From Phoronis australis (taxonomy: Eukaryota; Animalia; Phoronida): a stretch of 64,000 nucleotides of DNA. The stretch is from positions 1 through 64,000 of the forward strand of contig NMRA01000613.1 in the NCBI GenBank assembly GCA_002633005.1, written 5' to 3'. Both the position numbers and the translations under genes were made by a program. Within the stretch, counting starts at the first letter, position 1; the number at the start of each line of letters is the position of its first letter. This document shows, in pieces, positions 7,158 to 58,390 of this stretch. The notes below the pieces were generated by a model. That model was not told the origin of the DNA and ran no database searches. It was given only the letters and a program-made list of their open reading frames with translations.

Positions 7158-7435
7158 TCATTTTTGAGCAGGACTCGTCATAAACTCGTACTCGCTTTCG
7201 TTATCTTCTTCACTTATACCGTCCAGTTTCTCATACTCTTCCTGTGAATACCCCTCCCCATTTTCCAGTCCTTCATAAACGGAGGCTTGTGTCACGTTGA
7301 AGTACGCCGGGTCCTCAAGTTGTAAATAGACAGGAGATTGCAATTCTGAGTAGGCTTCATTTTCTTGACCCTGCTCAGGTGGATTCACCGTCTTTATCTT
7401 TTCCAACATAATTCCGTTGTGGCCGAGAGGCACTC
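7158..7435 (-). CDS. Ig receptor copy A, terminal exon: SAM C-terminal helix plus acidic tyrosine-motif tail
   Basis: Acceptor TTTGACAG, then GVPLGHNGIMLEKIK...AYSEL..VYLQL..AYFNV..SVYEGL..EYEKL..EYEFMTSPAQK*. Homologous to 24735-25018 and 43260-43534. Confidence 0.85.
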
Positions 7436-7802
7436 CTGTCAAAGTATAGTGTTGTGTGTAGCGTATAATGGAGTATTCCAAGATTTCACAATGAAACCAA
7501 AACCAGAAATCCATTCTGTGACTATAGCTTGACTATGGTGGACGTTATACCGCTGCATTTTAGAAAGGTTGTTGTCTTAATTCAATTTTTACTTGTGTTC
7601 GGCAGTGCAAGATCTTTCGGTTACGGCACATTTGTGTTAAAGATAAAGCTATAATTAACATTTTACTGTTCGTAACGAAAGTTTGGAAAAAATTTATAGG
7701 GAGTATTCTGTATAGTAATCGAAAAGATCACGCATATGGAAGTTTTTAGCCAGGTTTCGAAAACATAACTGACATGAGAGCGGCTGTGGTGAAAACACTT
7801 AC

Positions 7803-7940
7803 CTATTAGCCTTGATGCCAAGTCGTCAATGGAAAGTTCCTCCATGGAGTTTGTTGCAAGCCTTTCTTCGCCGACTCTTGGACGAGCAGGTCTACACACT
7901 CGCAATCTCAATGACTCGAGCAAAGTAACAACGTCTTTAT
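7803..7940 (-). CDS. Ig receptor copy A, SAM-like domain exon
   Basis: ATTTTAG acceptor and GTAAG donor, phase 1-1, 138 nt. Encodes DKDVVTLLESLRLRVCRPARPRVGEERLATNSMEELSIDDLASRLI. Confidence 0.8.
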
Positions 7941-8040
7941 CTAAAATTGAGGTTTGATTTTGAATAAGGAATTAAAAGAAGCAAAAGACAATTTTTAAGG
8001 AAGAAATAAAATTGTGAAAATGAAATGTAATTTTGCTTAC

Positions 8041-8080
8041 CAGTTCTCCCGCATGCAGCACTTGCAAACTCCGTTTCAAC
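8041..8080 (-). CDS. Ig receptor copy A, cytoplasmic mini-exon
   Basis: TTTTTAG acceptor, VETEFASAACGRT, GTAAG donor. Phase 0-1, as in the paralogous mini-exons of B and C. Confidence 0.7.
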
Positions 8081-8749
8081 CTAAAAATACAAATTTCCAT
8101 ATTAATTCTCGATCCAAAGATTCAGCTTTTCACAGTCGTTGCTGCACACTGAACTTGGACGAAATTGTTTCAGTTTTGCTTCCTTTATCTTCCTCAAGCG
8201 ACGCTATAGCGACTCGGTTGCGCTTTGATATGCAACTACGTTGCAAGACCATCGCAGACGCGAGATTGAAAGTCTAGTGTGATGATTAGATAGTACAACC
8301 GTCTCAACCGGCCCCAGTAGTGACCATGGGAATCCCGCAGGGCCACCATACATGTACATGTATGTCGGCAGCGGCTTTACGAATTATGCATCACACTGAT
8401 GAAATCATCAACGACACGTTGGGGTCAGAACATTCAGTGCACAGAGAGGCACCTTAGGAATCCATTGATGTCTGTTTAAATATATCAGCGAAGTTAGATG
8501 AATTTTCAAGCTCCAAACCATGTATAGCAGGAACTCAACGACATCGCTACTTGAATATCATCTACGCTAAACAAAATGTAATTCTATCCATGGACAACTT
8601 GTAAGTTGAAAATAAAAAATTCTGCAAATAGGTGACCTTTCTACTAATGACGTATCTTGGACGCTCACATAACCCGCATCATACAATGTTATTCTCCTCC
8701 ACGATACTTACTGGACACAGTTGAGTGATTTACTGCGGAAAATTTTCCA

Positions 8750-8802
8750 NNNNNNNNNNNNNNNNNNNNNNNNNNNNNNNNNNNNNNNNNNNNNNNNNNN
8801 NN
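8750..8802. other. Assembly gap (53 N)
   Basis: Run of N. Confidence 1.
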
Positions 8803-11800
8803 GGGCTCAAATGAGCCCCCCCATTTGGCGAAGTGGGCAAAAAAGTTCCGCCCCAGAGAGACAAAAAGTCCGAGAAAATGGGACACAAGTCCATTAAATA
8901 AGCGCAAATGCGCACTTCACAGTGGTGATCCCGTTTTTTTTAGTCCGCCCGCTGTTTTGTTAGCAAAAAGGTCCATGACGTCAAGATTTCGAGCCCCCCA
9001 CATTGAAAGCTGGGTGCGTGCATGGTAGGCAACTGGACAAAGTGCTGTTCGAAAAAAGTTTGATTGCGGGAGTATTTGTTTGAGCTGGAATAGTTTATCA
9101 GTGGCCTCCTAAGATGTCCTCTAGGCCTATGCAATGCAAAAGGTTCTTATAGTAACATGACTTTGATGGTTTAACCAGTGTGAGGCATAATTCGTCGAAA
9201 ACGATCCGACATATGGCGGCCCTGTGTGGCGATCACCGTCTTTAGTGGGGCCAGGTGAAACAGCGGTACTGTGTAGTTTGATCACGTGCTTAACTTGAAA
9301 ATTACGCGGCAATATCTCACGAAAATTTGCATGAGCTTGAGTTTTCGAGTTCCTTGGGTCAACAAAACACAGCCCCGGTATCAACCACGCTCATTCGGTT
9401 CCATATTCGTAATTTTTCGTACGATGTTATATTGTGCACATATAAGCTTAGCTGACATGTAGCAATCAGTGTGTATGACAATGTCACACGGAAAGAGAAG
9501 AATTAACTTTGGCGAATGAGTATAGTATCAACTGCTATCGTATTTACATGGAACGACTTAAACCTGGAACAACTGGCGCCCAAATTCAGTGTAATGAAAT
9601 GAGACATCTTAAAATATTTTTTCAGGGTATGGGCAGGAATTGATCTCAAAATCAGCTCGACACAAAGATAAAACGGTGATAAAACGTTCCAGTGCGGAAA
9701 ATACCTTCACACTATGCAAAATTACGCTGATCTTACAATGCTATGTGCTTCCCCTCCACCGGGCCTCACCGCCCTGAAATGAGTATAGCATTCTATTTTT
9801 TTGCTTTCCATTGCCAGGGGAGGTCACTGATGCCACTTCTTTTCCTCCGGTCGCTATCGAACTCACGTTCCACCGTCCCTTAGTTGTCACCGATGTCACG
9901 CTGCCCCATCCTGTCGCCACCAATTTCTGTGCCTTGGTATCCCATATTTACTTCATACGCCAACACTGGCGTATTGATCTTACTTAGATCCGACCAGTCC
10001 CCCAAAATGAAGAATGAGAACGGATAAGGTTTGACGAAAACTTTAGGAACGAAACGGGCAATGACTGCCACGAATAGTAGTCGGTTGTTCATTGGAGTTG
10101 TTTTGAGTAGATAAAGTTCAGAAATTTAGCCTTTGCTTCTAAGAAGCCGAGGCTAAATTTCTACCTGGATACAGACGTCGCATCTTCAAAGCACTACCTT
10201 GTTAAGTGGGGAATTTTTGTCACGAATGCAAGAACCCCATAGATAAGTGGAAATGGCCAAAAATCTGTTTGGTAATGACATATTTTAACTTGAATGTCTG
10301 GAATGTGGAGTGCAGGAGCAAGTGGATTCTAGTCTCCTGTCTTGCACTGCGGCAGTCGTGAACTTGTGATTTTAGGTACATTGAAAAAGGTCAAATGTCT
10401 TGGTATTTTCTGTATCTCATCGGACATCGAAACTTAAAGAGACGCGACTTTGCTGAATTTCTTCTTCGAGAAATCCCGCTGTGTGTGCTTTATTTAAGTT
10501 GTGCCTTTTTCCAGATGTCTTGAGACAAGGTGCACACGCGGACTTTTATTGACCCAAGAGCAGTGACAACATTAAAATCATCCAGTTCCAATGTGGTCTT
10601 TGTCCTCATCTTCACAAGTAACCAGATGTGACATTTTCAGGTGAAAAAGCATTATGTTATATTGCAATATCGGTCTCAAAACCAATGCCACTCGACTATA
10701 TGCCTGCTTTTAATAACTTCTTTCTGCCTTTCCTTTTCGTAAATTGTCCATTTTTAGGACTATTTTTGAGCAGACTCACAAAATATATTCGATTTCGACG
10801 TCACGTTTGGCAGTTTTGGGTAAACGAGGCGGTCTACTGACGTAGTAGCTCTCACGCCATGGGTACAACCCATTAGCAGACCACTCACTGCACTAATTTT
10901 TGTTGCAACAAAACTTTTGTTAAAATATATTGAGCGACGCACATATACCTGGCGCACGAAAAATGGTTGTTGTGTTTACCAGCAACGCTTGGACACTTGC
11001 GAGCCATGGAACGCTTGGCCATATTGCTCACAAAAGTCACGCACCAACACTCTTGCATAGATGCCAACCACCTCTCCATCGACACCAAGTGTGGGAAAGG
11101 TCTCATGTGATTTTGTCACCCGGTCTAAACGCCGTTACTCCCTCCAAGATACACATAAGTTACTGCGTTACATCGAGTTCAAAAATTGAGTTCAGAATCG
11201 GAGGGTTAGAAATGACCAGCTTCAAAGTAAGACGACATTAGAACGAAGATGTTCATTAAGCCACAAATAACGCTTTAATTCTAATTCAGAGAAAACAAAC
11301 CGCTGTACCTACATGTATTTCACATTTTTATCGGGACCACAAAATTAAGTCACAGACTCCAACAATCGCCTTTGTGGGAACTAAATGGCTTAACTGAAGA
11401 GCTATGTTACTAAAACAATACGCAACACAACTTGGTTTAGTTTTCGGACTTTTTCCTCTTCGGCATCTGCTAAGATTTCTGAGGTTACAGAAAAAAGTTC
11501 GTGAAATAAGCTCACCGTGTTGTTTTTACCAGTGACAACGTATGCGCTGGATGCAACTTCCGATGTCTGATGTGAAGATGGCCGCTCCGGTCGTTTGGCA
11601 CATGATCGGCAAATACTAAACAAGAAAGTATGCCCTCCAGTTAAACTTTAATACAGAGAACACATATCACACTATTATTTTCAGCCATTGCAACGTTCAT
11701 CATTCATCCATGAGATCAGGAAGAGATAACCAGGAAGGGACAACTGTTTTAGCGCATTTTAACGTGATTTCAAACGTGATTTTAAAAGTAAATGTTCAAG

Positions 11801-12311
11801 TTATCTGGAATCCAAGCATTATTTTTGAAAGATTAACTCTTTAGCTATAAAATGACACCACTTTGGTACTCAAAGACTGCATATTACTGGCACTGGGATG
11901 CTTTGAACGTGACATGTTTACCCTTCCAAAAGATGCTTGTTCCCAGGCATGTACTCGGGCATGAGCCTCTTTTTTGAACCAACAGATGTCACTAACATAT
12001 GCAAATGAGGCTCGCATCGCTACGTCATACGACGTCATACGGCGCGAGCTTCCAATTTGAAACGTCAGGTGCCTATAGTGTATGACTTGAAACGCAGTAG
12101 TCTACTTGATCGGGTATATCCTAGTATGATTCCAAGAAAACTAAGAGCTCACCCAAGTCAATGTTCAAAAAACATTGAGTATGGTTTCACATGAAAATAC
12201 ATTTAATTGTATTTGGATACGCTTGCGTGTGTGTATGCGTGAACTTTGTCATTTTGCTTAAATCCAGATTTAAAAGCAGAAATTCAGTAGCGTTAGCCCT
12301 AAGCCACGGTG

Positions 12312-12860
12312 NNNNNNNNNNNNNNNNNNNNNNNNNNNNNNNNNNNNNNNNNNNNNNNNNNNNNNNNNNNNNNNNNNNNNNNNNNNNNNNNNNNNNNNNN
12401 NNNNNNNNNNNNNNNNNNNNNNNNNNNNNNNNNNNNNNNNNNNNNNNNNNNNNNNNNNNNNNNNNNNNNNNNNNNNNNNNNNNNNNNNNNNNNNNNNNNN
12501 NNNNNNNNNNNNNNNNNNNNNNNNNNNNNNNNNNNNNNNNNNNNNNNNNNNNNNNNNNNNNNNNNNNNNNNNNNNNNNNNNNNNNNNNNNNNNNNNNNNN
12601 NNNNNNNNNNNNNNNNNNNNNNNNNNNNNNNNNNNNNNNNNNNNNNNNNNNNNNNNNNNNNNNNNNNNNNNNNNNNNNNNNNNNNNNNNNNNNNNNNNNN
12701 NNNNNNNNNNNNNNNNNNNNNNNNNNNNNNNNNNNNNNNNNNNNNNNNNNNNNNNNNNNNNNNNNNNNNNNNNNNNNNNNNNNNNNNNNNNNNNNNNNNN
12801 NNNNNNNNNNNNNNNNNNNNNNNNNNNNNNNNNNNNNNNNNNNNNNNNNNNNNNNNNNNN
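12312..12860. other. Assembly gap (549 N)
   Basis: Run of N. Confidence 1.
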
Positions 12861-13969
12861 ATAAGTTCGGTCGTCGTTTGCTTTTGTTTACAAGTCAGTC
12901 AACATGCCACGCTGTTGCTGCGTGCCGGGATGTACTCATTATCATCTCACACGCGTTTTGGGTACCTTGCGTCGATTTCCGAAGGATGACACACTTCGCC
13001 GTACTTGGCTAGCTCGTTCATGTGAAGAACGCAACGCTACCCGTCCACGCAACGTACAAAGCAGTGGAGGGTTACCGAGTGTGTGGCATGTGATTTCTGC
13101 CGTCAGATTACGACAGAGATATGTACGCTGAATTGATGAAGGTCCCTGCGAAACAACGCCTGCAGAAGGGTACCATACCGTCGCTGTTGATTCCCGGCAG
13201 TGCCCCGTCGCTAACCCCGAGAAGTGCGTTTTTGAAGCGAGAAGCCTCACGAGCTGTGGCCACTATATACAGTGATTGGAAGCACTTCATCTACTGTCAC
13301 CCGTGCCTCCGAACGTACCCCATTGCGTGCAATTGCGGGAACTAGCAGTGATTCGCCCTGTGCTGTTGTCTCTAGCCCAGAGCCTGTAAGCAGCCCTGCA
13401 GCGATGTTGAGTAGAAAGAATGAATACAGGTTTAGTTCGACATCCAGTAAAGAGGACAGTTCCTCATCCAATGAACAGATCGGCAAGCCTAAGTTTGATA
13501 AGTGTATTGTGGACTTGTATTGGAGCTATTTGGAAGGTGCCAGGTGTGTGGCGAGGGAGTCACACGGCGGGATGTAAGCAGTTTGGGTGCTCAGATCACC
13601 CTCCAGTGGGAGTGTGTCGCGGGACACTCGGGCAAGTGGGACAGTTTCTCCTCTGTACGTGAGACGACAATGAGTACACCCCAGTACGCAGCAACAGCGT
13701 GGCATGTTGACTGACTCGTAAGCAAAAGCAAACGACGACCTAATTTATCACAACCGACGTAGAACAATGACTGACTCGATTGCTCTCACAGTCAGACTAT
13801 ATGAAAAGAAATTTGCGCAAAATTTTTGCCTCCCAAAACGTCACTTCCGGAGTAGACGACGAGTAATTAATTAAATTACGAAAAGCAGTAAATAAGTGAA
13901 AAATATGTCTGGGATAATCAACGAACCTTATTTTTGCTAAAAATGACATGAAAAAGGTTGCCTTCGCCT
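12861..13969 (+). mobile_element. Degenerate THAP-domain DNA transposon, probably Kolobok type
   Basis: MPRCCCVPGC...RFPKDDTLRRTWL...RVC...F...RLQKGTIPSL is a disrupted THAP C2CH finger. It is followed by LLELFGRCQVCG...ITLQWECVAGHSGKWDS. The right end reads ...CCT followed by TTAA (13970-13973). The left end falls in the gap. Confidence 0.7.
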
Positions 13970-14500
13970 TTAAGGCGGTTAAGCTGCCTGACGAATTTAT
14001 TTTATTTTCAACTATGTTACCAAGCCAGAGTTCGGAAAAATCTCACTGTCAGTAGAATATTTGATACTCAGAAATTAAAAATACTCGATAATTACTTTCG
14101 TCAAACTTTGGAAAGAAGAAAACGTTTATTGTGTAGTTAGTCTCCCCTTAGCTCCACACGTATGGAGGGTAACTACAGTAAAACAAACACTACTACATGC
14201 TCTCATAGTGCACAGGCATTCATTGCAGCAAGTTTCTTTTTCAAGACTACAGTTCTCTTTGTGTTCTCACGAGCTGGAATATTTATACTTCGTGCACAGT
14301 TCTTTGTACGCCCATTCGATACACTATTCGTCATTTTCCGAACGACGTTTATCGTCAGTGTATAAGTAGTATACGTAGCTACATACATGGTAACCTCAAA
14401 TAGACGAATGAGCATGGTTAGTTGGCGTTTTGTGGCCATAATGATCTGGATGATGTTGCAAACTCTCGAGCCGTAAAGAGAAAAATAAAACGGTACTTAC

Positions 14501-14872
14501 AGTCCATAACAAGCTGGCTAACCGAAGATTTAATGAAGCCGCCAGAAATGGACACCTCCACAATGTACTGGCCTTCATCATCAGGTGTAACTTGATACAA
14601 AGTGATGGTGAAGTTAGTTTTTCCAAACGAGTAGTCAGTAGAAGCACGAAATGCATAGTCACCGAAAAACATTCCATCAATATTAGACGTACTGGGTGGT
14701 ACAACGTAGGGAGCTTCAAACACACCAGTCACGGTTTTGACTTTCCGAAGTAAAACCTTGCGAAAGACTTCACCACTCCCCAATGCATAACGTATCCTGA
14801 ACGTAGCGTTTCCACCCTTAATACCTATGATTTCACTAGGTGTAGTCACAGTAAGGGCAGAAACAGTGATAT
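14501..14872 (-). CDS. Ig receptor copy A, V-type Ig exon (no canonical Cys pair)
   Basis: TTTTCCAG acceptor and GTAAG donor, phase 1-1, 372 nt. Encodes GGNATFRIRY...NFTITLYQVTPDDEGQYIVEV with the V-set E/F-strand D-x-G-x-Y motif. Confidence 0.9.
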
Positions 14873-14971
14873 CTGGAAAACCATGAAAATTTTATATTCA
14901 GTGGCAGAACTGAGAAGACACAGATCCAGTAAAGGATACTTTGTGAAAATGTGATCTAAAGCAACCATTGC

Positions 14972-15412
14972 ACATCCATTGTCGCGCTACTGTCACACTC
15001 ATGCACTGAGTCAACCCATTCATTACATATCCATAGTCACCCTACTGTCACACCCATACACTGAGCCAACCCATTCATTACATATCCATAGTCACCCTAT
15101 TGTCACACTCATGCACTGAGCCAACTCATTCATTACATATCCATAGTTACTCTACTGTCACACTCATACACTGAGTCAACCCATTCATTACATATCCATA
15201 GTCACCCTATTGTCACACTCATGCACTGAGTCAACTCATTCATTACACATCCATAGTCACCCTATTGTCACACTCATGCACTGAGTCAACTCATTCATTA
15301 CATATCCATAGTTACCCTACTGTCACACTCATGCACTGAATCAACCCATTCATTACATATCCATAGTTACCCTATTGTCACACTCCCGCCCTGAGTCAAC
15401 CCTTTCATTACC
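14972..15412. repeat. 55-bp minisatellite, about 8 copies, in the intron of copy A between signal-peptide and V exons
   Basis: Unit CACTGAGTCAACCCATTCATTACATATCCATAGTCACCCTACTGTCACACTCATG is repeated head to tail with no spacers. Confidence 0.95.
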
Positions 15413-16123: not shown

Positions 16124-16187
16124 CTTTCAAGGAGACTGTTACAACTAGGAAGAAGATGGTCAACGACAGAGTTGTCACGTGATTCAT
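16124..16187 (-). CDS. Ig receptor copy A, signal-peptide exon
   Basis: ATG at 16187 gives MNHVTTLSLTIFFLVVTVSLK, then a GTCAG donor. 64 nt, phase 1, same length as in B and C. Confidence 0.85.
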
Positions 16188-18680
16188 AGCCGTTAAACGG
16201 TGTTGTGGTCTGAGTACAATACGTTCTATTCTGTGTACGCATATGCACAGAGCCCATACATCGTGACCTGAACAGAAGAACAGTGTCGTTAACTTTGACG
16301 TCAGAATTGTTGATAATTGAAATTATTCTCTGTATTACAAACGAGTGTAGCTAGCCACGTTCTCGCCAACTCTGTAAGTCTCATTTCGGTTTTCAGTCAA
16401 TGTTCAACATCCTCCCCCGTCTGTACAAACCTCTTGCCACAGCGCCTAAGCGATGGATTCTCCGGCTCCAATCCCTCCCCTCAACCAAGGTTATCTCCAA
16501 AGTTTTATTGATTAACCAGTCGCCGTCTTACAGAATCAATAAACAGAACTGTCCCAGGTGAGACTGTCGTGCCTCAACTTCCGGTGTGCGACCACTCCAC
16601 TGCAGATGACTTTCCAGTTAGGATGATGAATTCGCATAAGTATGTCCCTTATGGTCCGACAACGACGACTAAGCAACAAAAACGCACACACACACACACT
16701 GGCACATTGTAGTATTAGAAATTTCTTATCACCGAGTCTATAGTCTGATGTTTCATAATGGACTTAATTCATTTGTTCCATGCCTTGAAACTTTGCTAAT
16801 CCAAACGATCGCAAAATTCAGTTTTTAGAAGAAATTCACTACCGGCCAAGTGAAGCAATCCACGCGAGTGAATTATTCGCACCGAATAGCCGGCATGTGA
16901 AACGGTTCATTTAATCATACAATTCGGCAGTCCACCACAAGTCCATGAAGGTTCCTGAAGTGAAAAATGGCCCCGTGACGAAAATCCCCCGAGTTACCGT
17001 GTTAGCGAGCGTAGGTCAAAATGACGAGTGGATCTGTGTGTGAAGTAGGCCTGTCATTTATACCTAATCTCAGGTAAGTTTCGTGAATCATTGAGACGAT
17101 TAAACAACGTAAAACGCTGATTAATTGTTACTCTAAGTGACCTGATACAATGTATGATTGAGCCGGCCTGTTGCAGCCATATTAGTAACTTGCATACAAT
17201 GTATACAGTGTTGTGATCAAAAGCTCGCTTACCTTCTAAACAGTTACTTGCTCACAGCACTCAAGGCGGTGCTTTCTCCCTCAAGTAGCAATGAGCACTA
17301 TCAGCGTTAGAATTAGGCTCTTCGGGACCTTTAAGCTATAACACATGAAGATTTTCTGATGACACCAGGAAAACCTCCGCACGGCCAAGGTCGACAATGC
17401 TGTTGAGAAATATAGTCAGAAATTCCGGCGCAATTGGCCACGAGAGAGTTGACGAATTGACTTCCAGCTTATCAAAGGTAAAGTATAAAGTTGAAGTAAG
17501 AACGAAATTTATATTTTTTGTAAAGTTCGAGCTTTGAAACATCTACTCGTATGTATTTTTATTGGAAAATTTACTGCCAATTTTTGCAGAAATTTTGAGT
17601 TAGTGTTTGGGCAAGCTAATTTACGAAGATCACACTGTTCGCGGTTTGAAATGCTGGGCAAGTTTTTACAAGTTAAAAGGATACTAAACTCTGTTTTGAA
17701 CAGAAACTGAACTTACATTGAGGTGTAGGCAGGGCCTTAATAAAATCTCCAAATTTGACTAATCGGATCGTCATATCTCACAAAGGGATGTTCAAATTCT
17801 TAAATCACTTTTAGGTACGTCACGCAATGCGAGGAATACTGTTTTTTTTAGCTGCTTCATTGTACAGGAGGTCCATCAAAAATAGAGCTTGTATGACTTT
17901 CATGAACGAAACTCCAAATTTGCATATAACAGAATGATAATTTAAAAAATGTTAACAACATTTATATCAAATAAAACTCAGGTATTGACACCGTTGTTTT
18001 CCTATCGATGTGCATTCCTTTTTCCCCAAATTTTACTAAAGAGACAAAGCCAGTTGATTCTAATTAACGAGCAAGTAGTAAAATGTCAAAAACCAAACTC
18101 TATGGGCTTCCTACTTTCAAAAATATATGCTCTTACTGAGTTGAAGTCTAGCTTTACGGATGATTTTTTTCTAAATACTGAGTACACAGACTTGTGATAA
18201 AACCATCGTTAACCTTAAAGAAATGACGCGGTATATAGGGTAGTTCTCATAACGATCGAGAAACCTTTCAACATCGCCGTCACCACAGTCTTCGATCGAA
18301 ACAGCCACATGAGAAAATTTTAAGACACCGAGGCAAGGCCTTGAAGGGCCCCCTCGAGACGTAACGGCTGAACTGAGCAATATTCATTTAGTCAGTTATG
18401 TCTGTCGCTCATTACATATAGCAGAGATGGACTATATGTTGATATCAAATTTCAAGGAAAAACGTAAGATAAGACTAATCAAATTTGAAGGATGATTGTG
18501 ATCCAAGATGCCCTCATCATGTGACGTGTTCTTAATATTTGTTTTGACTCAGATCGCTGTAGCGAGAGCATACCCAACATGACAACATGGCGGATAGTTT
18601 TGTCAGCCAAATGGGTAGGCTCCGAAAGTAAAACACTAGAGAGATGTGCTTTAACAGGCATTATTGGTGTTTGGACACAC

Positions 18681-20039
18681 CGTAGCCTACAAAGTTCGGC
18701 AGGGGCCAATAAGGTCCGTAGCAGGAGTTTGGGATCTGTTCGGAGATAAATTCGAAGTATTTTTCCGTGAGATACAGGCAGGAGAACATAGATCTGTTTT
18801 GTTTAGACTTGTGATTTTTTGAGTTCTAAACACACAAAACGCTTGTTATCAGGCCACTGGCTCCAGTCGGAGCCCGATCAGGCCCGTCGCGGCCGGCCGG
18901 GACTGACTCGTTATCCCGGCCAGTGGCACGAAAGCCGATCAGACATCAAGAACATAAACCATCCAAAGTTGGAAACTAAACTTCCAGTCAAGAAATACAA
19001 GTGAGAAAAAGAAGTAAAGAGCACGTGATTATGATGGTGAATTAGCCACTAAACTGCAAATCTACTTACTCGTTGGGCGGCCTCGAATTCAGGTTCCGCT
19101 TTGGCCACAGAACCGTCACGGCAGAAGATGTACATTGACAATCATTATTTGAATAATGTAAATGTAAATAAAGATTCCCCTAACGCCTGGCCGTGGGATA
19201 GAAGTCAAGGTGTTTCACAACAGTTCCTGTCAGCAAACACTGAATTAGTACGAGCTCACACGGCCTCGGTGTCCCGTCAATTAGTTTTATTGCACTGAAA
19301 GCCGGTAACGCAGTGATATATTCATTGCTGGCTTCTCAAATCATTTGCACTCACGAACACTCCAAAGGCATTACAAATTGCATCTAATAAGACAGACTTA
19401 GTTTCAGTTTTATATAAGCATTGGTAAGACTGACAACAATTCATTTTGAAACAGAACGCTCAGTAATAAACGTCAACACTGCAACTCGCAATTCCGACTT
19501 AGACGAGAGCTCCTCCCAACGAAGACTTCGCAGGTGGATCCTTAAGTTCCACAGGCTATCAGTTCGAACAGGAATACAGTGATGAAGAAATACTAGAGAA
19601 GCGCCGTGAACAAGCTCAGACAAAGTAACGTATGGATAGTTAATTAGTAAGCCGGCATTCGTCAGGCACTGTTCTGCGACGTTTGCAGGCTACAGACACG
19701 GAGATGTCTCACGGCCTCATACGTGCTATTTACGGCGTACTTCTAACTCTTCACTACCGCGAGCCACTTCCTAAGCATTTCGGACTCTCGAAGAAGTCGA
19801 AAAACGATATGTCCGCTTTCCTCGCAGCTGTATAGTTCGGACAAGCAGGAACGATGCACCGCAACATAGTGGCATTAACTCTGCAAATGAACCACTGACG
19901 TCGCTGCGTCGTTTCTCACCTTCCTCACAGGTTAACGGGACACCTCTCGGTACAGTAAGGTCGATCGTGTGCAAGGCAACGTGGATATAGACCGATTAAG
20001 ACGTCAAAAAAGACAAATTAAATCGGGTGGCATTCTCCT
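18681..20039. mobile_element. Non-autonomous Kolobok-like element, left-truncated copy
   Basis: Collinear with 58870-60171. The right terminus is GGGTGGCATTCTCCT followed by TTAA. It carries a decayed THAP fragment on the minus strand (CIVPACPNY..ARKADISFF). Confidence 0.75.
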
Positions 20040-20929
20040 TTAATGATACACGGCAACATATCGGGTAACCTAAAAATCTAGCCGAAATAACGCGTTCTCA
20101 TTTAAAATACACGACAATACGTCAAGTAACCTCGCGAAGTTTTGCTTTTTAGAGGTCCTAGTAATACTGAACTCTACCACAGAACTATTTGTAACGTATT
20201 TAGACTTTACTGCAAAAGCTTATATAACTGTTGTAACTGTTCAGAAAATATTTTTTTGGTCCAAAGTACAGGGATGGATTAAAGAATTATGCCATGTATT
20301 GCTCAACTTTATTTGCAATCTTCTTTTGTGTCTTGGTAAACTTCATGTTTACAAACAAAAACTTAATGAGTCCAGGGGTCTGCGTCCTGAACTGTAATCC
20401 AACTTCAGTCGGAAATTGGGTCTTACGATTATTTCTGAAAACTGATTAAGTCTCAATATAGCAAAAGTGCAAAGACTATGAAAATAAACACATAACCGCT
20501 AAATTACTGAGACAGTTACTTATTTCGGCACTGTGGGCGCTCATAATTGTTTGACTAAACGTAGTTTCATTAACTTTGAAGTGGGCGAGAAAGATCAAAT
20601 TCTGACTAAATAGTTAGGTTCTGTGTATTTTAAATTTCTTCTTTTTGATTGACATTTCAAACCTCCTTTATTAGTGTATCGTCTGGCAAACAACTGCTCA
20701 CGTGACCTACAAATCAATTTCTCGTTGAATATAACGATCTCTAGGGAAGTCTACGTTCGTAATTCAGGGCAACGTGAGCGAAGTCTGGGTCGTAATTACG
20801 AGCGTAATCGCGGGCGAACAATTACGGTTTTAAAACATGAACGAAATCTCGGTCTTAGCAGTGTAATTACGGGTGAACGATTACGAGCGTAATTACGGGA
20901 GACAAGAGGCCACGATACCTGCCGACCAC

Positions 20930-24734: not shown

Positions 24735-25018
24735 CTAAGCAGGACTCGTCATAATCTCGTACTCGCTCGCGTTATCTTCTACACTTGCTCCATGCAGTTC
24801 GGTATACTCCCCAAGGGAATCTCCCTCCCTGTTTGCCAGTCCCTCGTAAACAGAAGCTTGTGTCACATTGATGTACGACACGTCCTCTGTTTGTTGATAG
24901 TCAGAAGCTTGTATGTCTGAGTAGGTGTCATCTTGAGTTTTATCGTCATCAACTCGCTCGTGTTCACCCGTCTTCCTGACCTTTTCCAGTATAATTCCGT
25001 TTGGTCCAAGAGGTACAC
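24735..25018 (-). CDS. Ig receptor copy B, terminal exon: SAM C-terminal helix plus tyrosine-motif tail
   Basis: TTTTGACAG acceptor, then GVPLGPNGIILEKVRK...TYSDI..VSYINV..SVYEGL..EYTEL..EYEIMTSPA*. Confidence 0.85.
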
Positions 25019-26026: not shown

Positions 26027-26155
26027 CTGCTAGCCTCGATGCCAAATCTTCAATACTGAGCTTCCGTAGAGAGTTCGTTGTACCTTGCCCTCTTTCGAGT
26101 GCTGTCGTGTACACCTTCAGTCCAAGCGATTCAAGCAGGACCGTAACATCTTCAT
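26027..26155 (-). CDS. Ig receptor copy B, SAM-like domain exon
   Basis: Phase 1-1, 129 nt, AG/GTAAAC boundaries. Encodes DEDVTVLLESLGLKVYTTALERGQGTTNSLRKLSIEDLASRLA. Confidence 0.85.
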
Positions 26156-26798: not shown

Positions 26799-26841
26799 CA
26801 GTTAGCTCCCTGCAACCAGTACTTTTTAACTCCATATCGAC
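26799..26841 (-). CDS. Ig receptor copy B, cytoplasmic mini-exon
   Basis: TTTTAAG acceptor, VDMELKSTGCRELT, GTAAG donor. Phase 0-1. Confidence 0.75.
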
Positions 26842-27519: not shown

Positions 27520-27619
27520 CGTGTCCTCTGTACTCGTCGCATCGCTAACTCTCATGGAGGTACCCCTTGTTTGGTATGAAGACAGCTGCTTTTGTCGTTT
27601 GGTACGTGGACGGCGTACT
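27520..27619 (-). CDS. Ig receptor copy B, juxtamembrane cytoplasmic exon (acceptor AG reads AA)
   Basis: VRRPRTKRQKQLSSYQTRGTSMRVSDATSTEDT with a GTGAG donor, homologous to 45291-45387. The acceptor reads CTAA|AGT where copy C has CTAG|AGT. Confidence 0.65.
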
Positions 27620-28696: not shown

Positions 28697-28841
28697 GTGT
28701 TTCCTCTAAATCCAGGAAGCAACACCACTCTTGTCTTTCGTACAACCAGCAATAGGACAAGGAGCAGAATTACATCTGAACACAAGGAAATGACAACAGC
28801 GGTTATTTCGCCACCTGTCAAACCTTGTTGTTGACTGGGAG
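28697..28841 (-). CDS. Ig receptor copy B, transmembrane exon
   Basis: TTTCTAG acceptor, APSQQQGLTGGEITAVVISLCSDVILLLVLLLVVRKTR...RGNT, GTATG donor. 145 nt, phase 1-2, hydrophobic helix followed by a basic stop-transfer signal. Confidence 0.85.
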
Positions 28842-30103: not shown

Positions 30104-30427
30104 CCGTCACTTTAATGGGTTGAGTTTTCACCGACAAACTAGCCTGCCTGTTGGACACGGTGCACCTGAACTGTACACCATCGTCAGCTTTATCCAGGTT
30201 CACCGCCAGTCTACTGGTGCCGCTAGTTGTCCCATCAGTGTTGTTGGTGGCAGTGATCATCCCATTCTCAGTCACGTTGGTGTGTGCAGCGTTACCAATC
30301 CGGCGTGACCACACTATGGCAGCCTGAGGTTTGCCCAAGTTGGCTGTACACGTGAGGACAGTCGGTCCTGCGCCACCAAGGACAGACTGTGTGGGGGCTC
30401 CTGTTATAGATGGCTTACCTGGGGGGT
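30104..30427 (-). CDS. Ig receptor copy B, C2-type Ig exon
   Basis: Phase 1-1, 324 nt. YPPGKPSITG...VLTCTANLGKPQAAIVW...SRLAVNLDKADDGVQFRCTVSN has canonical Cys-Trp-Cys in a CD80/nephrin-like C2 pattern. Confidence 0.9.
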
Positions 30428-30816: not shown

Positions 30817-31182
30817 AGTCTTCTACAAGTAGAACAAATGAAGATTTACTGGTGCCGCCAACAATGGACACATACACAGTGCACTGGCCTTCATCATCGG
30901 GTGTAACGTCTGACAAAGATATGGTAAAATTAGTTTTCCCATGAGAGTAGTCAGTAGAACCACGAGAAGCATAGACACCGTGGAACACTCCATCGTTATT
31001 AGGTGGATTGGGTGGTAAATAGTAAGCTGCTTCAAACACACTCACTTCATCTTTCTTCAGCCAAAGCCTGGTAAAAGTTTCGAAGCTCTCTAGTGCATAA
31101 CTTATCATGAACGTGGCAGTTCCACCGTTGACAGCAATGACTTTACATGGTGCAACGATGGCCAAAGCAGAGACGCAGACAT
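30817..31182 (-). CDS. Ig receptor copy B, V-type Ig exon
   Basis: TTGCAG acceptor and GTAAG donor, 366 nt, phase 1-1. Encodes GGTATFMISY...NFTISLSDVTPDDEGQCTVYV. Confidence 0.9.
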
Positions 31183-32392: not shown

Positions 32393-32456
32393 CTTTCACT
32401 GAAACTGTTACTGTTAAGAGGAGGATGATTCGCGACAGTGTTGTCACGCGTGTCAT
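32393..32456 (-). CDS. Ig receptor copy B, signal-peptide exon
   Basis: MTRVTTLSRIILLLTVTVSVK with a GTACG donor. 64 nt, phase 1. Confidence 0.85.
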
Positions 32457-43259: not shown

Positions 43260-43534
43260 CTACGTCATAATCTCGTACTCGCTCGTGTTATCTTCTACAC
43301 TTGGACCATGTAGTTCGGAATACTCTTCATGTGAATCTTCCGCGCTATTTGCCAGTTCTTCATAAACGGAAGGTTGTGTCACATTGACGTACGGCACGTC
43401 CTCTGTTTGTTGAGATGCGGAAGCTTGTATGTCTGAGTAGGTGTCATCTTCAGTTTGATCGTCGTAAATTTGCTCATGTTCACCTGTCTTCCTAACCTTT
43501 TCCAGTATAATTCTGCTTGACCCAAGAGGCACAC
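43260..43534 (-). CDS. Ig receptor copy C, terminal exon: SAM C-terminal helix plus tyrosine-motif tail
   Basis: TTTACAG acceptor, then GVPLGSSRIILEKVRK...IYDD..TYSDI..VPYVNV..SVYEEL..EYSEL..EYEIMT*. Confidence 0.88.
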
Positions 43535-43833: not shown

Positions 43834-43962
43834 CTACTAGCCTCGATGCCAAATCTTCAATAGAAAGTTTCCGTAGACAGTTCGTTGTTACTTGTCCTGT
43901 TTCGACAGCTGGAGAGTGGACATGCAGTCCAAGTGATTCAACCAGAGTCTCAACATTGACGT
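43834..43962 (-). CDS. Ig receptor copy C, SAM-like domain exon
   Basis: Phase 1-1, 129 nt. Encodes DVNVETLVESLGLHVHSPAVETGQVTTNCLRKLSIEDLASRLV. Confidence 0.85.
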
Positions 43963-44497: not shown

Positions 44498-44546
44498 CAG
44501 TTAGTTTCCTGCAACTGGTACATGTATTTGTTAACTCCATATTAAC
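44498..44546 (-). CDS. Ig receptor copy C, cytoplasmic mini-exon
   Basis: TTTTTAAG acceptor, VNMELTNTCTSCRKLT, GTAAG donor. Phase 0-1. Confidence 0.78.
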
Positions 44547-45290: not shown

Positions 45291-45387
45291 CAAGTCATCT
45301 GTATACGTCACATCGCCAGCTCTCATGGAGGTACCTCTTGTTTGGTATGAAGACTGCGTTTGTCGGTTGGCACTTGGACGGCTTACT
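45291..45387 (-). CDS. Ig receptor copy C, juxtamembrane cytoplasmic exon
   Basis: TTTACTAG acceptor, (K)VSRPSANRQTQSSYQTRGTSMRAGDVTYTDDL, GTGAG donor. Phase 2-0. Confidence 0.82.
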
Positions 45388-48403: not shown

Positions 48404-48548
48404 TTGTTTCCTCTAAATCCAATCACTGACATCACTCTTCTCTTTCGTATAACCAGAAATAAGACAAGGAGCACAATTGCCACTGCACACACGGAGACGA
48501 CAACCCCGGCTATTTCGCCATCTGCCAAGCCTTGTTCTTGGCTAGGAA
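48404..48548 (-). CDS. Ig receptor copy C, transmembrane exon
   Basis: TTTTTAG acceptor, VPSQEQGLADGEIAGVVVSVCAVAIVLLVLFLVIRKRRVMSVIGFRGN, GTATG donor. 145 nt, phase 1-2. Not present in the ORF track. Confidence 0.88.
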
Positions 48549-49470: not shown

Positions 49471-49767
49471 CTGTAACCTTTATAGTGACTTGTTTGGACG
49501 CTGTGTAGGTCACACCCCGTACAATGTTGGACGCGTTACATATGTAGACAATTACATCTTCAAGGACCTTCTTGGAGAGAATGGCACCATTGATATCTGT
49601 GAACTGGTACCACACGTACGCGTGAGGTGCAGGGATAGGCGGCGACGAGGGGTTGACACCACAACTTAGGCTGATTTGATCACCGACGAAGTAGTCAAAT
49701 TGCAAAGCACACAGAGTGGTGGACGTCTTACAAACTCGAATGTTGACGTCGGCAACAGGCTCAGGGG
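49471..49767 (-). CDS. Ig receptor copy C, third Ig-like domain exon
   Basis: Phase 1-1, 297 nt. GDQISLSCGV...PAPHAYVWY...YICNASNIVRG...VTIKVT has the Cys-Trp-YxC pattern. Confidence 0.85.
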
Positions 49768-50684: not shown

Positions 50685-51008
50685 CCGTCACTTTAATGAT
50701 TTGAGTATTGCCCGACAAACTAGCCTGCCTGTTGGACACGTGACACCTAAATTGCACACCATCATCAGCTGTATCGAGGCTGACTGTCAGTGTACTGGTG
50801 CCGTTAGTTGTCCCATCAGTGTTGTTGGTGGAAGTGAAAGTAGCATTCTCAGTTACGTTGATGTATGCAGCGTTACCAGTCCGAAGCCACCACGCCATGG
50901 AAGCCTGTGGTTTGCCCAAGTTGGCTGTACACGTGAGGACAGTCGGTCCTGCTCCACCAACGACAGGTTGTGAGGGAACGCCAGTTAGAGATGGTGTACC
51001 TGGGAGGA
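50685..51008 (-). CDS. Ig receptor copy C, C2-type Ig exon
   Basis: TTTATCAG acceptor and GTAAG donor, 324 nt, phase 1-1. Encodes VLTCTANLGKPQASMAWW...STLTVSLDTADDGVQFRCHVSN with several N-glycosylation sequons (NVT, NAT, NNT, NGT). Confidence 0.9.
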
Positions 51009-51660: not shown

Positions 51661-52026
51661 GGTCTACTACAAGTAGAACAACTGAAGATTTAGTGACGCC
51701 GCCAATAATGGCCACCTCCACAATGTAGTGGCCTTCATCGTCAGGTTTAACTTGTGACAAAGATATGGTAAAATTAGTTTTTCCATGCGAGTAGTCAGTA
51801 GAACCACGAGAGGCATAGACACCGTAAAACCCTCCGTCGCCATAAGGTGGATCAGGTGGTAAATAGAAAGGTGCTTCAAACACACTAGTTCCGTCTTTCT
51901 TCAGCCGCAGCCTGGTGAAAATTTCGAAGCTCCCTAGCACGTAACTTATCTTGAACGTAGCTACTCCACCGTTGATGGCAATGACTTTATGTGGCGCAAC
52001 TATGGCCAAAGCAGAAACAGTGACAT
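51661..52026 (-). CDS. Ig receptor copy C, V-type Ig exon (no cysteines)
   Basis: TTGCAG acceptor and GTAAG donor, 366 nt, phase 1-1. Encodes GGVATFKISY...NFTISLSQVKPDDEGHYIVEV. Confidence 0.9.

Positions 52027-52030: not shown

Positions 52031-52100
<70 letters not shown>
52031..52100. repeat. (AAT)23 microsatellite abutting the V-exon acceptor
   Basis: Perfect AAT run of 70 nt. Confidence 0.98.
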
Positions 52101-52101
<1 letters not shown>

Positions 52102-52541: not shown

Positions 52542-52605
52542 CTTTCACTGAAACTCTAACAATTAAGAGGAGGAGGAATCGCGACAGAGTTGTCGCAGGA
52601 GTCAT
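52542..52605 (-). CDS. Ig receptor copy C, signal-peptide exon
   Basis: MTPATTLSRFLLLLIVRVSVK with a GTAAG donor. 64 nt, phase 1. Confidence 0.85.
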
Positions 52606-55600
52606 AGTTGCCGTGAGACGAGATTTACAACCAGAAGATAACGTACTTATAATAACACATCTTGACCTGAATAACGAAAAAAAGCGCCGTGTGAACTAAG
52701 TGGTCACCATTATGATTTACGATACACTGTAGCTAGATCGACATTTCTGAGTGTCACTTGCAGGCCCAAGAACTCTGTAAACATTCCTTCTTTTCGTACT
52801 GAAACTTATGCCTAACACCCATCTATAGGTATGCTACTGCTAAACTGCGGAAGCGGAATAGTCTTCCAAAAGATATCCGCGCTGCTTTTCCTTTTCCACA
52901 GTTCAGCAGACAAAAAGCAGGCGTTGTGGATTACAATATAATGGCAACTTATGTAAATCTCAATTAAAGCTCTTTATTTGCTTTATCAGTATAGGGTAGT
53001 CCCGGATTACACAGGGACCCTCGCACATCGCTGTATTTACCCACATTGGAGTAAACATCTGTCATGCACATTTTCTGCCTCGTTTCGTAGCACTGGAGTT
53101 TCACATGTTATTTTTTGTCTGATTTTTTACAAAGTTTTCTCTGTAGCATTCCTGTATTCGTTCTTTCAATGCCAACGAAGTATTGGTGCTGTGCTCTGGG
53201 CTGCAACTCAAGCGTGAGAAAGTTTGATAAAGTGAACAAAAATCCGTAGATACGTGGTCTGAAATTCTTCGCCTTACCTACATCAATGAGAGACGCGAAA
53301 ATGTGCCTGGTTTTCAAAACGATTTCACGGGCTTTTTCATCTCCGGGACAAAGAAGAGTCCTATTGCCATGTAAACCGAGACTACCATGTTGATTTTGTA
53401 TATTTGTATGTTATTAGATTTTTACTTATGTTTGTAAGAAAAGAGCTTTTTAGGGCTAATGTTGATTGTGTATGAAGTCAGTGGCAAAGAAAAAGCAATT
53501 TTAGAGATTAGCTGTAACGACAGAAAACGGCAAGAATTTCCTGATTTGTTATAAAATCAAAACAAACAGCAAAGGATTTTGTTCTTTTATTATTCTAATC
53601 AAAGTAATAACTTCAAGAAATCTATCTTATCCAACGGGCGACTTTTGTCCGCAACATCAGTGATGTCCACTTAAGAATAAAACCAGAGGCAATACAATTA
53701 CTTGAGAATAAATAATAATTAAATATGCAAATAGAAATAAAAATATGAACATACTTAGGGAAGGCTTAAGAATACCTAAATGATAAAAGTTAAGAGCATT
53801 TTAATCCATCAAAATAAGCTTTTTTTAAAAAGAGATTTTATCTTCCACCAGAACGATAGGTAATTCAAATCCTGTACGTGACACTGCTGTCGAGTCCAAA
53901 AGAAAGGACAGGAAGACGAAAAGACGAAAAAGCCCTTTCACCCGACTCCTTTTTGCCCGTTGCACAGTAGTGTAAAATGACTTAATGTTTGGAGTTGAAA
54001 AATTAATATAAACCAGGTCATTAGCGTGTACAACTTCACACTTGTGTATCAGCATAGAACTCCAGCTCAGGTTTAGATATCTATGGTATCAGGTAGAGAA
54101 TATTGAATCCTAAAAGATTCCGTAGCCAGTCCGCTAGAGAATTTTTACGGTATTCTGTAAGACGGCCATATTCCCCGATCTTTGTAACGGAAATTTAGAT
54201 AGCATAGCGTAGGTTCTGTTAATCCAAAAAGTAAGCTATATAATCCAGATGCGAATTGATCCCTGAAGTCAATAAAGACCGACACGTCGACTGAGTGACA
54301 TACTTTCGAATTGGACTGATGTACATGCATAGCTGTTCACCAAGCTGACAGTAGTTCCCAACTTATTGGTTACTAATATCTGTATCACTCAAAACAACTC
54401 CCGTGTTTTCAGCACAGTTGAGCATAATGCCAGTGTACTACAAAGGCTGTAGAGGCATGGGCTAGGTTTCGGTATCACAACTGAAAGAAAAGCAAGAAAG
54501 ATCTCATTGGAAGGAAAAATAGCCTTGAATGACGGCATACTGAACGTACCTAAAAGAGCAACCCAGACATTAAGGTCACTGCAACGTCTTCATCCAGGAA
54601 ACTTGTTGATTACAAACAGGTTTCATGCATTGTTGTATGTTTTATTTGAAAATATCGATATTGAGGTCAAATACTCTTACAAAGTGACTGTTCATTGAAT
54701 ACAGTCAACGTGACAAGGAAAGTTTGCTCCTACGCTACTGTGTTCGACATGCTGAAGGTAGAGAATGAACCGAATCAGAGCAACTTAAGTCGTCGTTTTT
54801 TCAACTTTCGATATTATTCGACACTACCCAACTTAGGGTATATATATTCGTAAACCAGACATAACAGATTAGCAGGACCGTCGACAAACGTCTTATACGG
54901 TTCCCCACCCCCTACCATTTCAAGATGGCCGCTCTTCTCATGGAACCGAAAAACTGCAGGATCTTGCGTTAACTGAAAATGCATTTTGCAAAAGAAGCAA
55001 TTCCGTTCAGTTTTAAAATCTCGGACCCTCATAGCAACACAAAGCCATCACTTTCCCTTACAGGGGTGCAACAAATGCACCCACTATGAGCGTGCACAGC
55101 ATACTTTGAGACAGAACATCACAGAAAATGCTCCACTGGCTCAAAAACATGCTCGACATTGAGCTATGATACATGAAATGAGCATATAATATTTTGCTTT
55201 CGAAGAAGGCCTTGAAATAAATGGGAAGGGGCGATCTAAAACGTTAAGGTAAGAATGACCTATAATGAGCAACTGGTTTAAATAAATACAAAGTTTGAAA
55301 AATCACCTTGAAATTGGATAGGCGATAATGTAGTTGACCATAAAATCCGTCCGTAAAACAGAAAATGTCCTGGGCTTTTTAAACTTGTCATTTATCATTG
55401 ATTTTTCAAAATACCTTGGTTTGGTAAGGTCATAAAAGTTTATTTGGTTCTGATCTGCATGAGATTGCTTTGAAAATATTGTTTTTCAAAAACAGAAATT
55501 TCCTTTACATCATCTCAGGTTTCGTCGTAACGCCTTTCACCTTTTTACAAACACTCACCTGATATAAGATAAAGCAATGCCTTGTTGTTTTACTCAGCTC

Positions 55601-57929
55601 AAGATCAACTTCAGTGATGCATTGAGAAGCGATTGTTTGGATTCGTTAGTAGATCCTATCTACCTTAGCATGTACTTAAACAGAAGAGTTTTTCACTATT
55701 TTTCAAAAGCAATCATACAGTCTTAGCCTTTGACTCTTCATTGATTTTCAAAGTCGCAATTTTGATTACCGTATAGCACTGCTTAGCAAACTGGAATGGA
55801 AGCTAACCTTAAAGACCCCAGGGTAGCCTGTAAAAGCTTTGGCCGGATATTACGCCACTAGACAATGTTCACAATAGGCCAAGTGGCTGTATTGCCTCAG
55901 CTATACTAAGGCAATTTGAGAATGTGTAGCTATACATATATTAACAGTAAGGTCATCTTAAATAGCGCGTGCTTTTTGCTGCTATCTTTTTACTTCAAGT
56001 GTGTTCAGTAAAAATGCAGTTGAACAAAAGTAGATGTAGTAGGTGACGACTGCAAATCTCAACAAAGTTTATCTAGGGCTCAGGCATAATTTCAAAGTGG
56101 TAAGGACAAGAAAGGTAATTTTTTTACGAAATGACCCTGTTTGAAGTCTAATGCAAACTTCAAATCCGTGCCAGATTTTGTAAACCAGTTAATGGCGAGT
56201 CTTGTGAAAATTAAATCATGACTGAATTTTGCGTCCTTGCAAAAATTCCCCAAACAAAGTACAAAAACGGTAACCTAGTAATGGCCGTGTCCTTGTAATT
56301 ATTTATGAAAGTACACCAGTGTGAGTTTTAAAGAAAAAAGACTTTTTGAAAAACAAGAAACTATTTTATAACAAATAAACGACTTAACGATTTTCTAACG
56401 CTTGATACTCTGTATATTGATAACTGATTGCCGCTTTTACTGCCAAAAACATATTTTTGGACTGTCGTGGGAGGGGATAGACTTTTTGAAGTTATCAGCT
56501 TTTACCAAAACAAAAACAACAAAAGCTGTTGTGTTTTGTGATCTTGTTATAAATTTCCACTTGTTACTGTCTGCCAGACATTCGCTGAAACCAAGGCCGG
56601 TGACCCTTTCCAGTTAAATATGCTTACACTACTCTGCCACTTAGCGAGTGAGATTTAGCTCAGCGGCAAACCGATTACCTTCGTCCGCGAGTGTTCCAGG
56701 TTCGAAGCAGCACTAGAACTATGGACAATAAATCGTTGTTATCTTGTATAATATCAAATTAATTGATACATAGAAAGCTATGGGGAAGCTGTAGACATTA
56801 TGCTTTGTATCACTAAACGTACATGTATGGTGTATACATTCATACGATTCCATATCGGTCTTAATGATAAGGCTTAATCCAATGCGACTCAAAAACGTCA
56901 TGTAGAAAATTCACCAAAACGAAGTTAGCAAACAAGTTCAAACAAGTTCAAACAAGTTCAGACAAGTTCAAACAAGTGATATTTCGACACCCATTGCCTC
57001 ATAATTTTCAAAATTGTGAATATGTACCTATTCTACATACTCCAAAGGTACGTTGCTCATGGAATTTAACCTCAGATCTTTGACGAAAAAGAAAAATCAA
57101 ACACAGAAAGTTAAGTATCATGCACGTGTCTCTACCACGTGACTTCCTAAACCGCTTCGAGGTGGGTCCTTTTGTGCATCATTTCTCTTATACATCAATT
57201 CTAGTTTCCATTGGCTTTCAAGTTTAATCGCTGATTGAGATCTATCTCATTCACAGAGGATGTGATAGATGACTTTCTTTTCCTTCGTCTGTTTTTGTTT
57301 TAAAGTTGGCCAGTCGTCGAACCAGGACACGGATACACCACTCTTGTTTTGAAATCTTTGTTTAGCTTATGCATCCTAGTTTTTCAGATTCCAGGTATGT
57401 ATGGAAGACACATACTTTTTGGATAGAGTCTTCTTTTACCGCTTGCATTCAATAACATTCCCTGCACATTCCATTCATCTGTTCTACGTAGCATAGCGAA
57501 GGCATTATCCTGTATAGCTGACCACTCTGTGATACATGTACTTCGTAACACTACCATTCATGTCAACGGCTATTCGAAGGAGAACAGCAAAACCCGTTTA
57601 CAATAGTTTGCAAAAAAGTAACTGCTTAGAAATAATATATCAATTGCCTGAAACATGTCCACACAGTTATTGGCTAATTTTGCCAAAAAAGCTTACACTT
57701 AAGTACCACAGAAAAATCCGGTTTCAAATCAGTGAGTATAGCTGAGATGACAAGCCTTATACATCAAGTTATACAAATAGACAATGACGAGGTACCTTTG
57801 AAAAGGATATTTTTGCAAAAAAATGATGTGGCTTCCATGACTCACCAGGAGATGCTACCTGTAGGCTGACGCGAATTTTTCGCTACGTTTTGAAGTTGAC
57901 GTACTATGGAATTCCAAGCATGTCAGTTG

Positions 57930-58390
57930 TTAATGCCAACAGGTTTTACAGATTAACGGGTGTAAGCTTGATTAAATAACGCGCTAATCTATTTTTAACT
58001 GATTAATGTGCTGAGAAGACGAATATTAACGTCACAATGTAACGCAGCCAAAGTTGGTAGGTCAGGGAGTCCAAGAACGGATTAGACTTGTACATATCTG
58101 TAGTTAAAAACGGCAAATTCAATCTTCAATTGATGGGTAAATATTCAGAAACTGACAGAAGCAGTGGAATCTGTTACTGTTGCTGTCTTGTTGACATGCT
58201 GTCGTGACGACATTGACATTGTCCGAGGCGATGCCAAATCTTCAATAATAAGCTTCCGTTGATAGTTCGTTTTTACCTGTCCTCTTTCGACTGCTGATGG
58301 TTTGAAGTACAATTTATGAAAACGGAATTTTTCTTACCAGTTTGTTTTCAGGAGCCAGTAGGTCTACTTGTTGACGTCGTGTCGACCTTA
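57930..58390 (-). pseudogene. Decayed fourth receptor copy D (partial SAM exon plus mini-exon with stop)
   Basis: 57930-58225 matches the last intron of copy B (about 25185-25460). 58229-58296 (CGATGCCAAATCTTCAATA..AGCTTCCGT..TAGTTCGTT) is a SAM-exon fragment. 58338-58386 is the 49-nt mini-exon with an in-frame TGA at 58348-58350. Confidence 0.75.

Follow-up and report, generated by a model that had tools for sequence, protein, structure and literature searches.

Clustered immunoglobulin (Ig) receptors with tyrosine motifs are already known from several invertebrates. In the accessible text of its report, the Alr family of Hydractinia is a tandem cluster with pseudogenes, gain and loss of exons, and one exon per Ig domain (10.1101/2022.03.04.482883), and the FcoR family of Botryllus is likewise described as a cluster of type I receptors that bear several tyrosine motifs and differ in repertoire between genotypes (PMC12582321). 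Here we describe an Ig-receptor cluster of the phoronid Phoronis australis, found on a stretch of 64,000 nucleotides (nt) that we call the window (assembly GCA_002633005.1, contig NMRA01000613.1, positions 1 to 64,000). It consists of three adjacent minus-strand paralogs, A, B and C, and a relic fragment. The best reading is of a lineage-restricted receptor family with fast turnover and a likely built-in clustering module; we give a probability of roughly 55% to the view that these are tandem, fast-changing, single-pass Ig receptors with a likely sterile alpha motif (SAM) domain and a tyrosine tail, likely serving in immune or self/non-self recognition. The immune or allorecognition role is suggested by the architecture of the predicted proteins.

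The likeness to Alr, as far as its paper describes that family, takes in the clustering, the pseudogenes, the gain and loss of exons, the single exon per Ig domain, and tails with motifs of the immunoreceptor tyrosine-based inhibitory (ITIM) and activation (ITAM) types. Domain 1 of Alr, on the same description, and the V-type domain here both have an aromatic residue in place of the B-strand Cys and hydrophobic residues in place of the Trp and the F-strand Cys, and both keep the salt bridge. Alr domains 2 and 3 are described as I-set without paired cysteines, whereas the C2-type domain here is canonical, with C2-set_2 as its best family. Alr also has an Fn3-like spacer ahead of the transmembrane (TM) segment; none was seen here, where copy B passes directly from C2 to TM and copy C has a Cys-bearing Ig-like exon without an Fn3 match. 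Alr is further marked by extremely polymorphic alleles and by homophilic binding specific to the allele. The genes here are not Alr genes, being set apart on that description by the canonical C2 and the missing Fn3, and neither "SAM" nor "sterile alpha" occurs in the main text of the Alr paper (10.1101/2022.03.04.482883). FcoR, compared here by its description, shares the clustered type I receptors with tyrosine motifs and has intron-retaining forms with a cut tail, but its genes pair with Fester genes and no partner family was seen in the window; the main text of that paper does not contain the word "SAM" (PMC12582321). No second gene family turned up in Pfam scans of 58 window and other proteins.

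Receptors of the CD2/SLAM group (2B4) and CEACAM combine a disulfide-less N-terminal V domain with one or more C2 domains and a tyrosine tail, and their genes lie in tandem. The family here is alike in each of these respects and gives weak Pfam matches to Receptor_2B4 (E 0.002-0.014), but unlike CD2/SLAM it has a SAM-like segment, no C-strand Trp (copies A and C) and no immunoreceptor tyrosine-based switch motif (ITSM; TxYxxV/I, 0 in the three tails). Eph receptors are single-pass proteins with a cytoplasmic SAM and with ligand-binding, Cys-rich, Fn3 and kinase domains; the first two features are shared, and none of the latter four domains is present here. The whole tail of copy C, at about 182 amino acids (aa), is too short for a kinase, and no kinase or ephrin-binding Pfam match was found. 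Thus, the family is not SLAM, because it has no ITSM, and not Eph, because it has no kinase. SLP-76, in the accessible parts of its reports, likewise has a SAM followed by an acidic tyrosine stretch (PMC3795252, PMC5391757, PMC5431462), and its SAM mediates self-association for microclusters (PMC3795252); yet SLP-76 is cytosolic and has an SH2 domain, whereas here a like module is joined to an Ig ectodomain, the likeness being known at the SAM only. The literature searched in full text (mostly titles and abstracts, supplements excluded) yielded no kinase-less Ig-TM-SAM receptor, and automatic database annotations of such proteins may exist. An earlier note on this DNA had proposed the Ig-TM-SAM architecture as possibly new, a proposal that largely holds, favored by this literature result and by RNA joints between TM and tail, and weakened by the degenerate state of the SAM.

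Copy C (52605-43260) splices into 1746 nt encoding 581 aa, with GT-AG borders at 8/8 introns, which reproduces the single open reading frame of the earlier note; its nine exons run in the order given in Table 1, and the joining of ectodomain to TM is predicted from the gene models. Copy B (32456-24735) has the exon order of C minus the third Ig and would encode 484 aa. In the assembly, its juxtamembrane exon is preceded by AA where an acceptor AG is expected, and whether the next AG is used, the exon skipped or the intron kept, the protein stops after 303-323 aa and lacks both the SAM and the tyrosine tail. Copy A keeps an open frame in the right phase in six exons (leader, V, juxtamembrane, linker, SAM-like, last); its C2, third Ig and TM exons were not found in 8100-14500, where local alignment scores lay within those of 30 shuffles. 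Given the position of the juxtamembrane exon and the spacing in B, the TM exon of A is expected at or near a 549-N gap, and it, perhaps with the C2 exon, likely lies in that gap. An element of about 890 bp at 12861-13748, flanked by 90-bp inverted repeats (90% identity), sits inside copy A and adjoins the gap. The three same-strand paralogs and the relic, all on the minus strand, were thus found as claimed, and the shared exon sizes hold, except that C2, third Ig and TM exons were not detected in A; the exclusive use of GT-AG introns stands for C and fails at the B acceptor. The optional third Ig is an open exon in C only, lacking in B, with no Pfam match and a best PDB match at E 1.4.

Table 1. 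Exons of copies A, B and C, the relic and the assembly gap (window positions)
Feature	Position	Strand	Remarks
Copy C leader exon, 64 nt	52542..52605	-	
Copy C V-type Ig exon, 366 nt	51661..52026	-	Pfam V-set E 0.0016; V-set neighbors in Atlas
Copy C C2-type Ig exon, 324 nt	50685..51008	-	canonical Cys-Trp-Cys; Pfam C2-set_2 E 5.5e-11, over cut-off
Copy C third, degenerate Ig-like exon, 297 nt	49471..49767	-	open, phase 1, C-W-C pattern
Copy C TM exon, 145 nt	48404..48548	-	hydrophobic run, then basic residues
Copy C juxtamembrane exon, 97 nt	45291..45387	-	spliced model; RNA joint to TM
Copy C small linker exon, 49 nt	44498..44546	-	spliced model
Copy C SAM-like exon, 129 nt	43834..43962	-	holds first ~40 of ~60 SAM positions
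Copy C last exon, 275 nt	43260..43534	-	SAM-like end, acidic tyrosine tail, stop
Copy B leader exon, 64 nt	32393..32456	-	RNA joint to V
Copy B V exon, 366 nt	30817..31182	-	Pfam V-set E 0.00037
Copy B C2 exon, 324 nt	30104..30427	-	Pfam C2-set_2 E 1.7e-8
Copy B TM exon, 145 nt	28697..28841	-	RNA joint to juxtamembrane
Copy B juxtamembrane exon, 100 nt	27520..27619	-	acceptor AA
Copy B small linker exon, 43 nt	26799..26841	-	RNA joints on either side
Copy B SAM-like exon, 129 nt	26027..26155	-	Pfam SAM_1 E 0.025; RNA joints
Copy B last exon, tyrosine tail	24735..25018	-	RNA joint
Copy A leader exon, 64 nt	16124..16187	-	
Copy A V exon, 372 nt	14501..14872	-	Pfam V-set E 9e-5
549-N assembly gap, expected place of copy A TM (perhaps C2)	12312..12860	.	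spacing inferred from B
Copy A juxtamembrane exon, 100 nt	11516..11615	-	AG/GT, in phase
Copy A small linker exon, 40 nt	8041..8080	-	
Copy A SAM-like exon, 138 nt	7803..7940	-	most diverged; 52-57% aa identity to B, C
Copy A last exon, tyrosine tail	7158..7435	-	
Relic copy	58229..58386	-	linker exon with in-frame stop, intron end deleted, SAM exon partial

Transcripts of the family were sought in three raw-read RNA runs with the same species label (X1, X2 and X3), of which about 18-19% each was sampled; reads were placed on copy B at 85% likeness and on copy C at 90%, with a threshold of three reads for a joint on B. These reads do not separate alleles from paralogs. Exon depth comes nearly all from first mates on the plus strand, as fits minus-strand RNA, and joints were seen at 5 of the 7 modelled copy B junctions: leader-V (3/1/2 reads in X1/X2/X3), TM-juxtamembrane (0/3/8), juxtamembrane-linker (0/0/8), linker-SAM (4/5/13) and SAM-last exon (5/5/11). 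The TM, SAM and tyrosine exons are thus joined in RNA. Four of the five joints fall exactly as modelled; the TM joint is one base off, and because this shift fits a TM exon ending like that of copy C, its reads come from another allele or paralog. At the juxtamembrane exon the runs differ: in X1 and X2 both flanking introns are covered by reads (bins 1.5-7.4) and the exon is seldom spliced, and in X3 the introns are near empty (0-1.2) and the exon is spliced, a pattern that would fit if some individuals had a broken acceptor. The V and C2 bins of copy B drew divergent reads to depths of up to 100-118x, and 185, 140 and 272 reads have loose ends at 30883, where X1/X2 and X3 have different letters; on manual reading, these ends are other versions of V strands F-G, likewise without Cys. 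These divergent ends imply at least two additional, more abundant V types. Some X3 tail reads are frameshifted by deletions, of 14 nt in 7/16 and of 4 nt in 3/17.

Turnover is also seen in the DNA. Self-comparison of the window gives minus-strand repeated units, with exon identities of 77-86% between B and C and 63-78% between A and the others. Spacers at 21123-23592, 32799-36860 and 53396-57593 are homologous between units (70-85%), so gene-plus-spacer blocks were duplicated whole. The birth-and-death evolution that the earlier note proposed is supported by the relic, the damaged allele, the gain and loss of exons, the frameshifted transcripts and the extra V types in RNA. Coding constraint is present but loose, in keeping with purifying, relaxed selection (overall dN/dS: A-B 0.48, A-C 0.57, B-C 0.61; bootstrap intervals 0.34-0.83). 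A dN/dS of 5 for the B-C juxtamembrane exon was discarded, resting on 32 codons and defined in 197/300 bootstraps.

No ortholog of a known receptor, which the earlier note had named as a refuting outcome, was found in the protein searches made. A HMMER search of 1.84 billion representative proteins with the V profile gave 238 matches at E<=0.001. Among the 150 listed, the only near-whole-domain match in a single stretch was P0017 (38% to the copy B V), which is over the V-set cut-off and is a single exon-like open reading frame on a 1139-base contig; seven others that we inspected were rejected as repeat-type Ig proteins or junk, and SAM and tail profiles matched none of the 150. Word-indexed searches of longer proteins with the V, C2 and SAM-exon alignments gave 0/798, 0/1125 and 0/1259 candidates, which is weak evidence, and a metagenome contig scan gave 0/412 stretches.

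With Ig domains, a leader and single TM exons, the predicted proteins are Ig superfamily receptors. The C2 domain is a clear Ig domain, over the Pfam cut-off in both B and C and with the paired Cys and the Trp. The V domain is a weak V-set, under the cut-off in all three copies, with Phe at the B-strand Cys site, Val at the F-strand Cys site and the Arg-Asp pair kept. The C-strand Trp is lacking in A and C, and in B a Trp lies one residue away from the presumed position of the pin. The V domain of copy B also has three cysteines at non-canonical sites, one of them in place of the tyrosine-corner Tyr. A PDB sequence search with V gave no significant match (best E 0.22); in the Atlas, the nearest neighbors of V are two eukaryote clusters that largely lack annotation and whose few members of recorded phylum (3 and 2) are cnidarian, with chordate V-set clusters coming next. 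Between B and C, V identity on the presumed binding side (BC-C'' and F-G) is 42/65 columns, two shared gaps counted as identical, vs 51/58 elsewhere (Fisher p 0.003), and three-way identity is 27/65 vs 35/58 (p 0.047). The strand labels are our own, assigned with the alignment already in view and no confident model to guide them, which counts against the comparison.

These same features could belong to cell-adhesion or wiring receptors with a nectin-, nephrin- or Kirre-like V-C2 ectodomain, in which the tyrosines would bring in cytoskeletal adaptors and the expansion would have no immune role. The best family of the C2 exon is the CD80-like C2-set_2, which nephrin/Kirre and nectin-type proteins typically have as well, the third-ranked Atlas cluster for V is that of Nectin-2, and the tyrosine exon of copy B gives a weak Bravo_FIGEY match (E 0.058). 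Rapid turnover, as seen in the relic, the damaged allele, the frameshifted reads and the run-specific V types, fits conserved adhesion receptors poorly, however, as do dN/dS values of 0.48-0.61 and the lack of an ortholog among the matches listed, and we consider an adhesion family unlikely.

The SAM-like segment of the tail is split over two exons. For the copy B SAM exon, SAM_1 ranks best among 24,736 Pfam families (positions 6-43/64). On a profile built from 63/67 bacterial SAM loci, the B and C tails outscore 1000/1000 shuffles, and a profile-profile alignment of the three tails runs in register through 56/61 SAM columns, crossing the splice junction, with a score of 28.6 (P 1.2e-4) where the best of 100 column shuffles reached 18.8. 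We consider the segment probably of SAM origin. Were it instead a helical stretch arisen by chance or a vestige without function, the genes would be ordinary invertebrate Ig receptors with tyrosine motifs. Consistent with that, SAM_1 is matched in 1/3 SAM exons only and under the Pfam cut-off (15.4 vs 23 bits), the score of the copy A tail is reached by 126/1000 shuffles, hhalign gives SAM a probability of 54%, the basic motif of the last helix is poorly kept, and the SAM exon has no usable Atlas match and its profile 0 matches in a PDB sequence search. Against it stand the in-register alignment across the junction, 19/46 invariant columns in the SAM exon, and a dN/dS for that exon against A of 0.15 and 0.36 (dS near saturation) beside a juxtamembrane exon of 27-31% identity, and a tail without a SAM appears quite unlikely. 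The SAM of the earlier note thus has moderate independent profile support, with the qualifications that it is split and under the cut-off.

After the SAM, the tail is acidic, and five of its tyrosines are invariant in 3/3 copies. The ITIM pattern [ILVS]xYxx[ILV] occurs twice in C, twice in B and once in A, and YxN and YxxM motifs are present in all three tails; the ITAM pattern fits only if a spacer of 6-12 is allowed. ITIMs bind SHP/SHIP and ITAMs bind Syk/Shark, and YxN docks Grb2 and YxxM docks PI3K.

Beyond the doubts about the SAM, several results weigh against a tandem family of signalling recognition receptors. The ITAM-like pair has a spacer of 10 residues in 3/3 tails, outside the 6-9 used for Alr. 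Both AlphaFold models of the V domain are of low confidence (predicted local distance difference test scores 46 and 38), and dN/dS is robustly >1 in no domain. V-C2 and C2-TM joints are absent among the copy B joints listed, and the reads of the abundant paralogs span V and C2 and not the tail, so the SAM need not be in every family member. For copy C the joint counts are lower bounds: those listed include at least two family joints, TM-juxtamembrane (4 reads) and SAM-last exon (3 reads), both in X3 reads whose letters resemble copy B. The depth of the copy C third-Ig bin is 3.6 in X3 vs 0.3-0.6, and a single transcript with a C-like ectodomain and a B-like tail would account for both RNA results. 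The joining of exons in transcripts, which the earlier note had named as a check, is thus seen from TM through SAM to the tyrosine exons, with V-C2 and C2-TM not among the joints listed. It is highly improbable that the locus holds decaying duplicates of functional members elsewhere in the genome. In favor of decay, the B acceptor is broken, A is incomplete as assembled, a relic is present, window-like tail joints have about 5-13 reads vs 140-272 reads at one site for other V types, and reads 99% alike to the copy C region are few (45-52 per run), but C holds a 581-aa frame over 9 exons, the visible exons of A are open and in phase at a dS of about 0.6-0.7 from B and C, and overall dN/dS is <1.

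If these are indeed recognition receptors, the variable face of the disulfide-less V would bind a surface ligand on another cell or a microbe. A Src-type kinase, not encoded in the receptor, would phosphorylate the tail, and SH2 proteins would dock on its ITIM-like, ITAM-like, YxN and YxxM sites. The SAM may aid receptor clustering, by analogy with that of SLP-76 as its report describes it (PMC3795252). Where the tail is lost, as in the assembled copy B, the copy or allele would be a decoy that does not signal, or a null allele. A more specific version, in which an undescribed invertebrate allorecognition or immune family joins an Alr-like pin-less V to an SLP-76-like module of its own, with individual-specific V repertoires and switching between full-length and tail-less alleles, is tentative and may well prove wrong.

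Outside these genes the window, which has 40% GC, a CpG observed/expected ratio of 0.89 and three N gaps, holds several further features. A degraded long terminal repeat (LTR) retrotransposon with several broken frames lies on the minus strand between B and C (37400-42900; RVT_1 E 0.03), and from its motif pattern we take it to be BEL/Pao. A GIY-YIG endonuclease fragment at 4841-5242 (-; E 0.00022) is presumably the relic of a Penelope-type element. A 1.4-kb repeat is present in two copies, 75% identical, at 18661-20043 and 58853-60175, the latter with heavy RNA read cover on both strands. Minisatellites of 55 and 26 bp and an AAT microsatellite lie at 14966-15411, 36845-37168 and 52031-52100, the AAT repeat abutting the copy C V acceptor. 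An open frame of 369 aa at 62660-63769 (-) has an acidic, serine-rich end and no Pfam match.

In conclusion, if the SAM is functional, these receptors would be a one-chain version of clustering by receptor plus adaptor. A second family with a pin-less V, here next to a canonical C2, bears on whether the Alr-type V is an old lineage or has had repeated origins. The cluster also offers concrete candidate recognition genes for an animal in which none may be known.

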